From IMG/VR virus record IMGVR_UViG_2537561710_000018: DNA of 8,074 bases; one strand, given 5' to 3'. The position numbers and the translations under genes are program-made. This document shows, piece by piece, positions 1,461-5,721 of the stretch (positions are counted from its first letter, which is position 1; every line of letters begins with the position of its first letter). Source of the stretch: a virus (Duplodnaviria; Heunggongvirae; Uroviricota; Caudoviricetes). The notes below the pieces were generated by a model that was given only the letters and a program-made list of their open reading frames with translations, was not told the DNA's origin and did not search any database.

Positions 1461-1879
1461 TTCTCAATCTCTCGATGGCGCAGTGCAGCAGATGCCAGTT
1501 GTTCAAGCTAGCACGCAAATTGTAAACCAGAATGCCAGGAAAAAACAAAACCCGCCGAAGCTGGTTGTGTGCGGTTGCGTTGAAGTCTCCTAGCCAAAGA
1601 GTAGCGGTGACCACTCCCCGCCGATAATCTTAGTTGTTTAATTTCGTAAGCTAACTAGGCTAAAAGCTCTCTGTTGTCTGCCTGTTGTACAATTAACAAA
1701 ATGAACAACGAACTAGATATACCAACGCCAGAATGGTGCAACAAATCCCAAACAACACAGCAATGCAACAATAACATATGTTATTTTCCTCTCACGGGAT
1801 TCAGTCCTGAATTCTCATAAAGCTAATCTTTTTTTAAAAACATACTGTTAGATCACATGCACTTTCTTTCTTAACATCG

Positions 1880-1907
1880 TTGACTTCGCATGCGAAGCGT
1901 TTAAAAT
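1880..1907 (+). promoter_or_regulatory. Candidate sigma70 promoter of the GHKL operon with a palindromic operator-like site
   Basis: TTGACT (1880-1885), 16-nt spacer, TAAAAT (1902-1907), about 50 nt upstream of the ATG at 1960. Perfect 14-bp palindrome CTTCGCATGCGAAG (1884-1897) lies in the spacer. GAGAG Shine-Dalgarno-like element at 1950-1954. Confidence 0.4.
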
Positions 1908-1959
1908 CAACAATTTGCACTTAAGGTATTTATTTTCCCAAACACATAGAGAGTAAATT

Positions 1960-3351
1960 ATGACTGAGAACACGACTCCAACAGCAGACTTTAGTCCTAG
2001 TAAAAGATTTTTTGTAAGTATGCTAACTCGAGATATCGACTTAAACGATGCCATACTTGATCTGCTTGATAACTGCGTCGATGGGGCTTTACGTACAATA
2101 AAAGACACAAAAAAAACTTCAAAACCATATGAAGGATTTTATGCGAAACTTACGATTAATAAAGATGTCTTTATTATAGAAGACAATTGCGGAGGTATCC
2201 CTAAAAGCTTCCGAGAATATGCTTTTAAAATGGGACGACCCCATCAAAAAGAAGAAGAAAATGAAGGCACCGTTGGCGTCTATGGTATTGGTATGAAAAG
2301 AGCCATTTTTAAAATGGGTAGAGATTGCTCAATACAATCGAATAATCCCGATGGCGCATTCACTGTAGATATAACACCTGATTGGATCGATGGTGATGGT
2401 TGGAAAATACCGATGCACGAGAGTGACTATGATAACAAAAATCCAACAGGCACAACTATAGAGATAAAAAAACTCCATTCTAATGTGGCACAAAAATTTA
2501 ATGAGAGCACATATCTTACTGATCTCTTTTTACAGATAAAACACTCATTGTCATTTATTATTCAAAAAGGATTTAAAATAGAATTAAATGGAGTTGTTGT
2601 TGAACATAATCCGATTAACATCATAACTGATCATTCTAAAATAGAACCATACATATATAAAGCTAAAATAGACGATGTTGATATCGATTTAGTTGTTGGC
2701 TTCTATAAAAATTTAGAAGATGACAATGATGATGTTTTAGAAAAAAGGAGTTCTGATGATGCTGGATGGACTGTCATTTGCAATGACCGCGTTGTTCTAT
2801 ATTGTGATAAGACACATCTCACAGGTTGGGGCTTTGCTAATGTACCAAGGTTTCATACCCAATTTATAGCAATTTCTGGGGTTGTTCGCTTTACCAGTAA
2901 AAACCCAGAAAAATTACCAATAACAACAACGAAACGAGGTGTCGATCTTAGTTCTACATTGTACAATGATGTACGAAATAAAATGATTGAAGGGATGATG
3001 CATTTTATTCGATTCACCAATCAGTGGAAAGGTGAGCATCTTGAAGAAGGGAAAAAATTACTTAAGTCAGCTCAGTCACATGAAGCTCAATCTTTATTTG
3101 AAATTACCCCACAATCAACTCCAGAAGATAAAAAAAATAACTGGTCCAACCCTAATAGAAACAAAAATGAGTGGCGATATACACCTAAGCTGCCTACCCC
3201 AGTAAAAAAAAGCTCTACTGTACGAATAATCTTCACCAGAGAGAAAGAAGATGTTAAAATTTTATCTAAATATTTCTTTGGACATGAAGATGCTAGCGCT
3301 TCTGATGTGGGGATGCAATGCTTTGATACGGTGATTGAAGAGGTGAAGTGA
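1960..3351 (+). CDS. GHKL-superfamily ATPase, MORC/Hsp90/MutL-like (Bergerat fold), 463 aa
   Basis: N-box DLLDNCVDG (2059-2085) matches ExxxNxxDA/G. G1 box EDNCGG (2179-2196) matches DxGxG. G2 box GVYGIGMK (2275-2298) matches GxxGxG. All in the canonical order and spacing within the first 115 residues. Confidence 0.8.
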   Translation: MTENTTPTADFSPSKRFFVSMLTRDIDLNDAILDLLDNCVDGALRTIKDTKKTSKPYEGFYAKLTINKDVFIIEDNCGGIPKSFREYAFKMGRPHQKEEENEGTVGVYGIGMKRAIFKMGRDCSIQSNNPDGAFTVDITPDWIDGDGWKIPMHESDYDNKNPTGTTIEIKKLHSNVAQKFNESTYLTDLFLQIKHSLSFIIQKGFKIELNGVVVEHNPINIITDHSKIEPYIYKAKIDDVDIDLVVGFYKNLEDDNDDVLEKRSSDDAGWTVICNDRVVLYCDKTHLTGWGFANVPRFHTQFIAISGVVRFTSKNPEKLPITTTKRGVDLSSTLYNDVRNKMIEGMMHFIRFTNQWKGEHLEEGKKLLKSAQSHEAQSLFEITPQSTPEDKKNNWSNPNRNKNEWRYTPKLPTPVKKSSTVRIIFTREKEDVKILSKYFFGHEDASASDVGMQCFDTVIEEVK

Positions 3352-4340
3352 TGTCTGGACAATACATTCCCTATCACTTAAGGCATAATAAGTCTATTGA
3401 TAGAGAGATTTTTCTCGAAAGCCTAAACCTCTTAAGCAAAAGACTAAATATTCAAGAATATACATATATAGGTTTTGGTGGTCCGATGCTTGAAGATTTT
3501 AGAATCATGCATAATCGTATCGCTCTTTCTGATATGATTTCTCTCGAAGAACAAGAGTCTACTCACATCAGACAAAAATATAATTTGCCTTATAATTGTA
3601 TTGATTGTAAGCTAATATCAGCTCATGACTTTATTCTTGATTATAGTTTTTCTAAACCATCAATAACATGGTTAGACTATGCCTCCCCGAAAAAAATACA
3701 AACGGATCTAGATGATATACACTTACTAAGTACTAAAGTAAGCTCTTTTGATATTTTGAAGGTCACCTTCCCCATAAATCCTAGTTCTTATTACCAACGT
3801 AGAGTTGGAGAAAGTTTAGATATTTTTAAAGAAGCTTTTATTAATTCATTAAAATCATTGCTTGGGAAAAAGTATCTTGATTTTAATCTTCAGATATCAA
3901 ATGCAGATCTTTCAGATCGTAAGATTAAAGCTCTTTTAATACGAATTATTACAAACGCTTTTAGATCAGCAATAGAACGTGGTCTTTCAGGACGTAAGGA
4001 TAAGATTCAGTATTACCCATTATCCTTAAATCAATATAATGATGGCAGTCATACCATGTTGACAATATCAGGTTTTTTCTCCTCAGAACAAGAATATATA
4101 GAGTTATCTAAGGCATGCGACCTTTCTAACTGGCAATTTTATTCAACAAATTGGGAAGACGTGCAAGAAATAGCAATACCAACACTAACAATTAAAGAAA
4201 AGATAAATTTAGATAGTAAACTGCCTGATAAAGAAGCATATCAGGCAGCCGCTGAAGAGTTCTCTTTAAACGAAAATGAACGGGATAACTATTATAAATA
4301 CTATAGGTTATACCCTAACTTCCAAAGAATTATGGTTTAA
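3351..4340 (+). CDS. Uncharacterised partner protein of the GHKL ATPase, 329 aa (candidate effector or specificity subunit)
   Basis: ATG at 3351 overlaps the upstream TGA (TGATG) with GAGGTG 6 nt upstream, indicating translational coupling. Same AT-rich codon usage as the ATPase gene. No nuclease or methyltransferase motif recognised; a glycine-rich IGFGGP segment lies near the N-terminus. Confidence 0.7.
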   Translation: MSGQYIPYHLRHNKSIDREIFLESLNLLSKRLNIQEYTYIGFGGPMLEDFRIMHNRIALSDMISLEEQESTHIRQKYNLPYNCIDCKLISAHDFILDYSFSKPSITWLDYASPKKIQTDLDDIHLLSTKVSSFDILKVTFPINPSSYYQRRVGESLDIFKEAFINSLKSLLGKKYLDFNLQISNADLSDRKIKALLIRIITNAFRSAIERGLSGRKDKIQYYPLSLNQYNDGSHTMLTISGFFSSEQEYIELSKACDLSNWQFYSTNWEDVQEIAIPTLTIKEKINLDSKLPDKEAYQAAAEEFSLNENERDNYYKYYRLYPNFQRIMV

Positions 4341-5459
4341 ATATTCGGGCTGTACTCTTTTATTTAATAAATTGTACAGCCCCTTTAATATATATTCAGC
4401 AACTATTGGTGACACGCTATTTCCTATTTGTCTGAAACTATGCCATTTAGTTACATGAAAGCGAAACCAATCAGGGAAGCCTTGTAATCTAGCAGCTTCT
4501 CTTGGTGTAATCACTCTTGGATGATAAGGGTGGATCGGCCTGACGGCTTGAAAGCTTCCTTTATCTCTAGCGGTTCCCGCCCTTAAAGTCGGGCAAAAAC
4601 CATTTGGATCTAATCTTGTAGATCTTGAAATTTTATCAGTTTCCCCAAAAGATAAGGAAGCATAACGCTCTTGGACGATTTTGCTATGTAATGTTCCGGT
4701 ACATCCAGATATGATATTATTTTTTAACTTAGCGATCGATTCTGTATCACCAACATTCCGAGGGATCTGCCCCCATAATTTTTCATAAAATCCCCCTTTT
4801 CGATCTTTTTTAATTGTTCGCCAACTCTCAGAGTCTGATTGCCAATTGGCATCGATAATATCTGGTAATCCATACAAAGCATCTTTTACAGTAACCGGAT
4901 CAATCATTTTAGGCATAAATACTTCATCTGAAATATCAAGCTTCAATGATTTTTTTACACCGATAAAAAAATATCTAGTTCGAATAGTTGGAGCACCATA
5001 ATCAGATGCTTTTACCTTGATGGGATCAAGAATATCATAATCACCGCTAACCAAATTAAATGCTTTATTTCTAATGCCAGAATATTTCTCTTGCATAATA
5101 CCTGGAACATTTTCTGCCAAAAAGAATAATGGCTGTAATTCTGATACTAAACGGTAGAAATGCATGTAAAGCTGATTCCTGCTATCATCAGGATTCCCCT
5201 TGCCTATTGAACTAAATCCTTGGCACGGAGGACCGCCAATAATACCATCTATGGGCATATCGTTTTTAAAAAAACCCTTAATTATTTCTGCATTTAGTAA
5301 AGAAACATCTTCTTGGACGTGCAAACTTCTTGGAAAATTAATTGCGTGAGTATTAATAGCATGTTGATCAATTTCAACTGCCATTTTAACATCAAATCCA
5401 GCACGTGCAGCACCAAGACTTAGACCTCCAACGCCAGAAAACAAATCTATTACATTCAT
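4308..5459 (-). CDS. DNA (cytosine-5)-methyltransferase, 383 aa
   Basis: Motif I DLFSGVGG (5424-5447), motif IV GGPPCQGF with catalytic Cys (PPCQ at 5220-5231), motif VI ENV (5106-5114), a variable TRD-like region, motif IX RVITPREAARLQGFPDWF and motif X GNSV, all in canonical C5-MTase order. Confidence 0.9.
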   Translation of the reverse strand: MNVIDLFSGVGGLSLGAARAGFDVKMAVEIDQHAINTHAINFPRSLHVQEDVSLLNAEIIKGFFKNDMPIDGIIGGPPCQGFSSIGKGNPDDSRNQLYMHFYRLVSELQPLFFLAENVPGIMQEKYSGIRNKAFNLVSGDYDILDPIKVKASDYGAPTIRTRYFFIGVKKSLKLDISDEVFMPKMIDPVTVKDALYGLPDIIDANWQSDSESWRTIKKDRKGGFYEKLWGQIPRNVGDTESIAKLKNNIISGCTGTLHSKIVQERYASLSFGETDKISRSTRLDPNGFCPTLRAGTARDKGSFQAVRPIHPYHPRVITPREAARLQGFPDWFRFHVTKWHSFRQIGNSVSPIVAEYILKGLYNLLNKRVQPEYLNHNSLEVRV

Positions 5460-5483
5460 ATAGTTGCAACGTCTCTTATTAGT

Positions 5484-5500
5484 TTCTATGTATTATAACA
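5484..5500 (-). promoter_or_regulatory. Candidate extended -10 promoter of the methyltransferase gene
   Basis: Minus strand reads TGTTATAAT (TGnTATAAT; hexamer at 5492-5497, TG at 5499-5500), about 30 nt upstream of the ATG at 5459. The -35 is weak (TAAAAC/TTAAAA). Confidence 0.4.
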
Positions 5501-5721
5501 CAACTGTTCTTGATGTTTTAACCCCATAAGATAACCTCATAAAGGCTATCCCTTGAAAATACCGGATCGCATAAATTTAATCTTTCAAAACTACTTGTCT
5601 ATTAATCGAGCAATTTAAGGTTGTTTTAGTCATGTCGATACCGACATAGTTAACTAAACCCATTTCATCGTCCAACAAATGGGGGTAATACACTTTGATT
5701 TATAGTCGGGTGGGTTTTTCT

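Follow-up and report, generated by a model that had tools for sequence, protein, structure and literature searches.

The DNA analysed here (the window) is an 8,074-nucleotide stretch of IMG/VR record IMGVR_UViG_2537561710_000018 (Caudoviricetes), a segment of a lambdoid, Rac-like prophage that carries a cassette of three genes within 3.5 kb. An ATPase gene and the gene for a 329-residue protein, which we call the partner, lie in tandem on the plus strand and face a gene for a C5 DNA cytosine methyltransferase, called Dcm below, on the minus strand (Table 1). The cassette occupies a low-GC island that is an insertion into the nin region of the prophage. Genes for DUF1367, DUF1364 (YbcO-type) and DUF1133 proteins flank the island on one side and genes for hypothetical proteins only on the other, with replication genes further out; these names, and the Rac-like context itself, are taken from the identical region of Escherichia coli O157:H7 PA20. 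Over positions 1700–5600 the window matches O157:H7 PA20, among other Shiga-toxigenic E. coli genomes, at 100% identity, and this segment recurs at 99% identity or above in 173 of 5426 complete E. coli genomes, in the chromosome every time. A first-pass annotation of the window had presented the partner as a candidate novel effector with no recognisable catalytic motif, and, should the cassette be restriction-like, as the most likely place for its nuclease or target-recognition activity. Here we describe it as a member of a catalogued family with a predicted methyltransferase fold, coupled to a MORC-type ATPase in a mobile module.

Table 1. Positions in the window of the cassette, its genes and the sequence features discussed in the text
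Feature	Position	Strand	Description
Low-GC island	1750..5500		~32–38% GC (about 33%) against 45–57% in the flanks; composition profile
Promoter-like TTGACT-16-TAAAAT	1880..1907	+	Upstream of the ATPase gene; weak evidence
ATPase gene	1960..3351	+	463 aa; predicted prokaryotic MORC-type GHKL+S5 ATPase, obligate upstream partner
Shine-Dalgarno-like GAGGTG	3341..3346	+	Within the 3′ end of the ATPase gene; read from sequence
TGATG	3349..3353	+	ATPase stop TGA 3349–3351, partner ATG 3351–3353; one shared base
Partner gene	3351..4340	+	329 aa + stop; predicted class I S-adenosylmethionine (SAM)-methyltransferase fold, Pfam PF20553 (Methyltransf_35)
N-terminal motif Y8-H-L-R-x-N-K14...R18	3372..3404	+	≥95% conserved (36 and 84 sequences)
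Motif I region YTYIGFGGPMLEDF	3459..3500	+	Residues 37–50: β1, glycine loop G41-x-G43-G44-P45, start of helix A (E48, D49)
E66, motif II	3546..3548	+	Acidic, end of β2 (strand 61–66 in the model); ≥95% conserved
Motif IV W107-L-D109-Y110	3669..3680	+	End of β4 (strand 104–109); W107, D109 ≥95% conserved
Variable basic insertion	3786..3995	+	Residues 146–215, isoelectric point (pI) ~10, mostly helical; least conserved part of the partner
Convergent overlap of partner and Dcm 3′ ends	4308..4340		33 nt
C5 DNA cytosine methyltransferase (Dcm) gene	4308..5459	-	383 aa, convergent with the partner gene
Promoter-like TTAAAA-18-TATAAT, extended TG	5492..5521	-	Upstream of the Dcm gene; weak evidence

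The junction between the ATPase and partner genes is tight, and the first-pass annotation had its coordinates right. The GAGGTG in the 3′ end of the ATPase gene stands at Shine-Dalgarno distance from the partner ATG; an in-frame GTG at 3348 is the mechanical start of the open reading frame (ORF), whereas alignments of homologues begin at the ATG instead. Eighty loci were fetched with a partner profile, one genome per species, and brought to 84 with the earlier loci; their ORFs within 7 kb were labelled by iterated profile searches and clustering. In 83 of these 84 the ATPase gene immediately precedes that of the partner. The two genes share 8, 4 or 1 nt at their stop-start junction in 65 of 81 loci from many phyla, and a gap of at most 11 nt separates them in 14 more; overlap or near-abutment thus holds in 79 of 81. 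The co-expression that had been proposed from the single overlap in the window is in this way matched by a coupling kept across phyla.

The partner gene is well supported as a member of a large family. It matches Pfam PF20553 (Methyltransf_35) with 300.4 bits against a cut-off of 27 (E 2e-89), over residues 1–328 and profile positions 1–308 of 309, and it matches PHROG 19983 at E 1.7e-154. An exhaustive search returns 2126 clusters at 50% identity with E ≤ 1e-3, and because of these three results we take the ORF to be a real gene, not a chance ORF. Among the top 150 of the 2126 clusters nearly all proteins are about 300–380 aa long and all but three are single-stretch, full-length matches; the length and single-domain architecture of the partner are typical of PF20553. 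All 36 of 36 aligned homologues match this family, and relaxed Pfam scans of the same 36 revealed no second one. Pfam labels the family 'putative O-methyltransferase' and RefSeq names the protein O-methyltransferase (WP_000016656.1), so that the effector is not the novelty it had been taken for. Searches of NCBIfam and PADLOC found no model for the partner, and comparison with the sequences of solved structures, by single sequence and by profile, gave chance-level matches alone. No characterised member emerged from a literature search with PF20553 and Methyltransf_35, and full-text searches that included the RefSeq accessions, 3G7U, CP-933R and the combination of GHKL, anti-phage and cytosine methyltransferase returned nothing on function. 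Confident homology to a housekeeping family, which would have told against a defence role, did not appear either: PF20553 members stand in mobile, defence-type contexts.

An AlphaFold2 model of the partner, built from 36 homologues, is confident (pLDDT 89.2, pTM 0.87) and has the alternating β/α core and seven-stranded topology of class I methyltransferases. Its structural neighbours in Foldseek, a comparison that the first-pass annotation had proposed, are all SAM methyltransferases, and the core of the model has their Rossmann fold. Nucleic-acid methyltransferases come closest in fold; natural-product methyltransferases are also numerous among the matches, with similar scores. The glycine-rich loop that had been offered as a possible SAM-binding turn is motif I of this fold (YTYIGFGGPMLEDF), with a strand at residues 38–42, a helix at 45–57 and a loop that reads G41-F-G43-G44-P45. 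In class I enzymes the acidic residue at the end of β2, here E66, is the position that binds the ribose of SAM. Motif IV reads W107-L-D109-Y110-A-S-P; it lacks the PP of the amino-methyltransferase signature (D/N/S)PP(Y/F/W), and only its W, D and Y/F are conserved.

We examined conservation in 84 partner sequences spanning Proteobacteria, Cyanobacteria, Firmicutes, Acidobacteria, Verrucomicrobia, Chloroflexi, Latescibacteria and others. Residues conserved at 95% or above are Y8, H9, L10, R11, N13, K14, R18, Y39, G43, D49, E66, R74, W107, D109, T139, Y229, D231, M236, P277, E283 and P322, and G41, G44 and E48 follow at 85–95%. Because G43, E66 and D109 of motifs I, II and IV are among them, the SAM site looks intact in alignment and model, and the statement that the protein has no recognisable catalytic motif gives way to a full-length PF20553 member whose invariant residues map to these three motifs. 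Our guess for the N-terminal Y8...R18 motif is a substrate or cofactor lid. Compared with RsmD, Trm1 and RlmI/RlmO, the partner shows 7–13% identity and a TM-score of at most 0.45, has no DPPY/DPPF, and carries in addition the N-terminal motif, the basic insertion and a C-terminal helical region. With such low identities, and no sequence-level relation to solved structures or to other Pfam families, it appears to form a distinct, isolated family within the methyltransferase fold.

These features bear directly on the proposal that a restriction-like cassette has in the partner its nuclease or target-recognition effector, a novel one whose catalytic site resembles no known motif. The module has no recognisable nuclease, so that the activity would fall to the ATPase or the partner; the invariant charged residues H9, R11, K14, R18, D49, R74, D231 and E283 exceed the needs of a SAM site; and the variable basic insertion could contact DNA. 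Against this, the entire core is accounted for by the methyltransferase fold, SAM binding explains the invariant G43, E66 and D109, and in a test of low power no segment of the partner co-varies with Dcm. Pfam and PADLOC give no PD-(D/E)xK, HNH, PLD or GIY-YIG match in the partner, in agreement with the motif scan of the first-pass annotation. We therefore hold a cryptic nuclease to be very improbable, and the partner, judged by its sequence and predicted structure, is probably not the nuclease that it had been suspected to be.

The database name raises a different possibility, that the partner is a small-molecule or protein O-methyltransferase that acts on the ATPase, a metabolite or a signal and involves no nucleic acid, with the ATPase as sensor and methylation as the regulatory or effector step. 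The names in Pfam and RefSeq speak for it, as do the many natural-product enzymes of similar score in the Foldseek list and a motif IV that is not of the nucleic-acid amino-methyltransferase type. The median pI of the partner (6.3) is mildly acidic, as in many small-molecule methyltransferases; that of the ATPase is 5.7, while Dcm (9.3) and Vsr (10.7) are strongly basic. We found no support for the 'O-' of the name: the partner has no sequence match to any characterised O-methyltransferase family or to a solved O-methyltransferase, and the O-methyltransferases among its structural neighbours score no better than N- and C-methyltransferases. We regard this role as improbable.

In Pfam the upstream ATPase matches HATPase_c_3 alone. 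Its best structural matches are MORC3, SMCHD1 and MORC2, and a profile search of PDB sequences places MORC3 and MORC4 on top, weakly (E ~0.04). The alignment contains the four GHKL motifs I–IV and a TTTK325RG loop, with the usual sensor lysine, ahead of a long S5 helix. The segment G269-WTVICND-R277-VV agrees with GhXhhpXXRhl, the defining MORC motif of Iyer, Abhiman and Aravind 2008 (PMC2292703). With GHKL motifs I–IV, an S5 domain with a basic sensor and the MORC motif all present in its sequence, we assign the ATPase to the prokaryotic MORCs. Across phyla it is better conserved than its partner (45–48% against ~30% identity), and a search with it gave at least 5430 matches at E ≤ 0.001 among 8000 candidates scored, the 120 best listed being all of ATPase length. 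No nuclease features were seen in its C-terminal 130 residues. The last part of this region (residues ~421–463, positions 3220–3348) has a strand-helix-helix pattern, with VRIIF, helices at 429–440 and 447–462 and a conserved VGxxCF. A ribbon-helix-helix reading of this C terminus matches the secondary-structure pattern only, finds no family match and is left as speculation. WonAB of Vibrio cholerae, which surfaced in a literature search on paraMORCs, consists of an ABC ATPase and a PD-(D/E)xK nuclease and is unrelated.

The third gene encodes a classical C5 methylase. Dcm matches PF00145 at 2.6e-61 and PADLOC MTase_II at 2e-98, and its translation shows the FSGxGG, PPCQ, ENV and GNSV motifs. 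Its residues 1–367 are all but identical to those of a solved structure, PDB 3g7u chain A ('Cytosine-specific methyltransferase'; E 1.3e-254), which we take to be the enzyme that prophage CP-933R encodes in E. coli O157:H7 EDL933; we found no paper on this structure. It is not an orthologue of the host Dcm, scoring 35.7 bits against NF007772, for which the cut-off is 710. The partner and Dcm genes overlap at their 3′ ends, and a convergent overlap of 9–49 nt recurs in at least 12 proteobacterial and firmicute loci; through it, antisense effects or transcriptional interference could serve to regulate one half of the cassette by the other.

Across the 84 loci, a C5 methylase adjoins the ATPase-partner pair in 70, either upstream and co-directional or downstream and convergent, which supports the earlier view of one cassette with the methylase. 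Vsr is present in 28 of the 84 and not in this window. One could regard the pair as a MutL-like accessory for damage caused by Dcm, aiding Vsr-type very-short-patch repair of the T:G mismatches that arise from deamination of 5-methylcytosine. Vsr, however, is missing in two thirds of the loci, the pair occurs also without Dcm, a SAM-binding partner has no obvious part in repair, and prophage-moron and island contexts are ill-suited to it; among the explanations considered here this is the one we credit least.

The surroundings of the module are variable. Among 137 flanking ORFs we find scattered integrases, HNH_2 (4), ResIII/HsdR (3) and GajB-like helicase (3) genes, and other methylases, a neighbourhood of the mobile, defence-island kind without a constant fifth component. 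In a Yersinia prophage the cassette occupies the same nin-region position, with a partner only 32% identical. In Pseudomonas it lies within an integrase island, and the accessory end of the filamentous phage PfAC20 (PP058144; locus L091, 280–3711) encodes the ATPase, the cytosine methyltransferase and the partner, the last annotated there as 'hypothetical protein'. When a published study ran PADLOC on this phage, the outcome was just 'cytosine methyltransferase, incomplete RM' (PMC11878078), in agreement with a PADLOC collection that lacks a model for the ATPase or the partner. A search for the nearest phage records gave no match by DNA and one match, to a Pf phage, by protein.

Individual loci depart from this arrangement in several ways. 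In Ralstonia pseudosolanacearum (locus L002, 10172–12057) the cassette stands beside gyrB, with genes for Vsr and for a type IV restriction-like ScoMcrA_N/NOV_C protein after it, which suggests a small defence cluster by replication-origin genes. Nine loci encode a second, larger GHKL ATPase of ~540–610 aa, for which HATPase_c_3 is the sole Pfam match in the three scanned (L021, L022, L033). This larger protein is usually encoded beside Dcm; in L021 and L039 the pair stands between the two, and L031 also encodes an HNH_2 endonuclease. A Rhodoferax metagenome-assembled genome (L019, 5616–12709) has one Dcm between two divergent ATPase-partner pairs, whose partners are 26% and whose ATPases 32% identical; motif I of the second partner is G-M-G-S, not G-F-G-G.

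Returning to the window, the ATPase and partner genes (1960–4340) are on the plus strand and all flanking phage genes (20–1460 and 5891–8045) on the opposite one, which Dcm shares. This layout would suit a moron that uses a promoter of its own in the lysogen and whose methylase may also be read from phage early-right transcription. Promoter-like sequences precede both the ATPase and the Dcm gene, and the count of such sites in the region is no higher than the shuffled expectation.

Taken together, our preferred reading, for and against which we find the balance about even, is that the partner is a SAM-binding, methyltransferase-fold protein and obligate partner of a MORC ATPase, within a Dcm-marked, restriction-like mobile module that is a moron of a Shiga-toxigenic E. 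coli prophage. A C5 methylase, often with Vsr, next to a separately transcribed and tightly coupled gene pair on mobile DNA has the layout of a restriction–modification (R-M) system, and from it we infer that the MORC and the methyltransferase-fold protein form the 'R' half. In such a scheme the partner and the MORC-type ATPase would be made in fixed proportion and make up all of the mobile module apart from Dcm and, where it is present, Vsr. Dcm would place a 5-methylcytosine mark on resident DNA. The MORC dimer might close on DNA upon ATP binding, like eukaryotic MORCs and MutL, and the SAM pocket and substrate cleft of the partner could engage the target, either by methyl transfer or by reading its methylation state. 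Engagement would then direct or license the ATPase against DNA that lacks the mark.

Several observations weigh against this preferred reading. Neither a nuclease domain nor a nuclease gene was found in the module, which leaves 'restriction' without an identified executing activity, and clustering of all ORFs within 7 kb in the 84 loci brought out no further recurrent gene of any kind, nucleases included. Pairwise identities of the ATPase and the partner are correlated (rank correlation, rho 0.49), which speaks for joint inheritance of the two and so for the reading, while those of either with Dcm are hardly so (0.10–0.14); loci L026 and L028, for instance, share 72% identity in the ATPase and 69% in the partner, and only 30% in Dcm. 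By these comparisons Dcm is exchanged independently of the pair. No segment of the partner co-diverges with Dcm in a comparison of low power (16 non-independent 'swap' pairs). In the Nostocales/cyanobacteria (Scytonema, Nostoc, Kastovskya; L011, L013, L016, L017) no Dcm lies within 7 kb, so that the pair can do without a methylase next to it; NADH-dehydrogenase subunit (ndh) genes (Proton_antipo_M) enclose it in L011, L013 and L017, and in L016 such a gene is found on one side only. The W-L-D-Y of motif IV differs from known DNA amino-methyltransferases, and two mildly acidic proteins are unlike the usual stand-alone DNA enzyme. PADLOC-DB 2.0.0 returned no family for the ATPase or the partner at E ≤ 1, and the only hint in NCBIfam was MzaB (E 0.037, far under the cut-off). 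Our confidence in the mechanism is low because of the missing nuclease, the independent exchange of Dcm, the Nostocales pair that stands alone and the mildly acidic pI.

Some of the same evidence would suit a module of modification only, epigenetic or anti-restriction in function, in which the partner is an active second methyltransferase that the MORC loads or drives on nucleic acid, and nothing is restricted. The intact, conserved SAM-site motifs and the closeness of the fold to nucleic-acid methyltransferases are in keeping with it, and so are the lack of a nuclease, the persistence of the Nostocales pair without an adjacent Dcm, and the place of Dcm on the phage early-right strand, where lytic expression is possible. 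A strict ATP-dependent partner would nevertheless be unusual for a plain modification enzyme, the acidic pI and non-canonical motif IV are unlike known DNA methyltransferases, and the sporadic, island-borne spread near other restriction genes, together with the R-M-like convergent layout, favours a conflict system. We consider a modification-only module possible, if unlikely. Restriction might also proceed without a nuclease: the SAM-loaded subunit would probe cytosine methylation and the MORC clamp would entrap, compact or block DNA lacking the Dcm mark, thus silencing it and not cutting it; in a variant, the MORC would sense foreign DNA and turn the partner into a methylating toxin. This last idea, in either form, we hold to be decidedly unlikely.

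The preferred reading, of a restriction-like module with the MORC and its partner as one half, can be set beside several known systems. BREX relies on a methyltransferase-fold protein for its non-self-directed arm, together with ATPases and no identified nuclease. The cassette is unlike BREX in that PADLOC detects no homology to PglX, PglZ, BrxC or BrxL, and its self mark would come from a separate classical C5 methylase. CglI and NgoAVII reportedly (Zaremba et al. 2014, NAR) combine an m5C methylase with a two-protein half that hydrolyses nucleoside triphosphates, made of superfamily 2 (SF2) helicase-like and PLD-nuclease/B3 subunits; the cassette shares the methylase and the two-protein NTP-hydrolysing half, and Pfam searches found neither the SF2 helicase-like nor the PLD/B3 domains in it. 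A Type II R-M system would call for a cognate endonuclease; the methylase is here, neither companion protein has a nuclease match in Pfam, PADLOC or NCBIfam, and the 84 loci show no recurrent nuclease gene. The association of Dcm with a paraMORC-like HEF_HK kinase and Response_reg_2 described by Bellieny-Rabelo et al. 2021 (PMC8011034) follows a shared three-part logic: a C5 methylase, often with Vsr, a HATPase_c_3 GHKL protein and an adjacent small Rossmann-like partner. It differs in its receiver-like partner and in a GHKL protein with additional HEF_HK and HATPase_c domains, where the present module has a SAM-methyltransferase-fold partner and a plain MORC ATPase.

A precedent lies in the prediction (PMC2292703) that prokaryotic MORCs are components of R-M systems, a minority of their neighbourhoods having methylases and no helicase. 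Our module resembles these MORC/paraMORC systems in its GHKL motifs I–IV, S5 sensor lysine, MORC motif, links to cytosine methylase and Vsr, and sporadic lateral spread, and the loci with a larger GHKL protein (L031 with its HNH_2) recall the 'MORC plus paraMORC1 (plus HNH)' neighbourhoods of that paper. SF2 helicases and nucleases are present in about 70% of the MORC neighbourhoods it describes and absent from this module, which has a methyltransferase-fold partner instead. In the sections of the paper that were covered we found no mention of a methyltransferase-fold MORC partner, and in the searchable literature no experimental work on this cassette or on any prokaryotic MORC. The partner is thus already annotated, in a catalogued family, and its identity is resolved and ordinary; the module of MORC, methyltransferase-fold protein and Dcm is not a named system. 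From its gene content we predict a MORC-associated, R-M-like system without helicase or nuclease, with a methyltransferase-fold partner.

Because the cassette belongs to a prophage of Shiga-toxigenic E. coli, O157:H7 included, it is directly testable in K-12. At such loci current defence finders show only an orphan or 'incomplete' methylase (PMC11878078), so that the defence repertoires of these prophages may be under-counted. A cassette that restricts would do so by a new mechanism; one that does not would still leave the link between Dcm, MORC and a methyltransferase-fold protein to be explained. The MORC silencers of eukaryotes were proposed in 2008 to derive from prokaryotic MORC ATPases, and this small, widespread module bears on that proposed origin. 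Were the silencing idea true, the module would be a bacterial counterpart, and a plausible ancestor, of the MORC-mediated, DNA-methylation-coupled silencing of eukaryotes.

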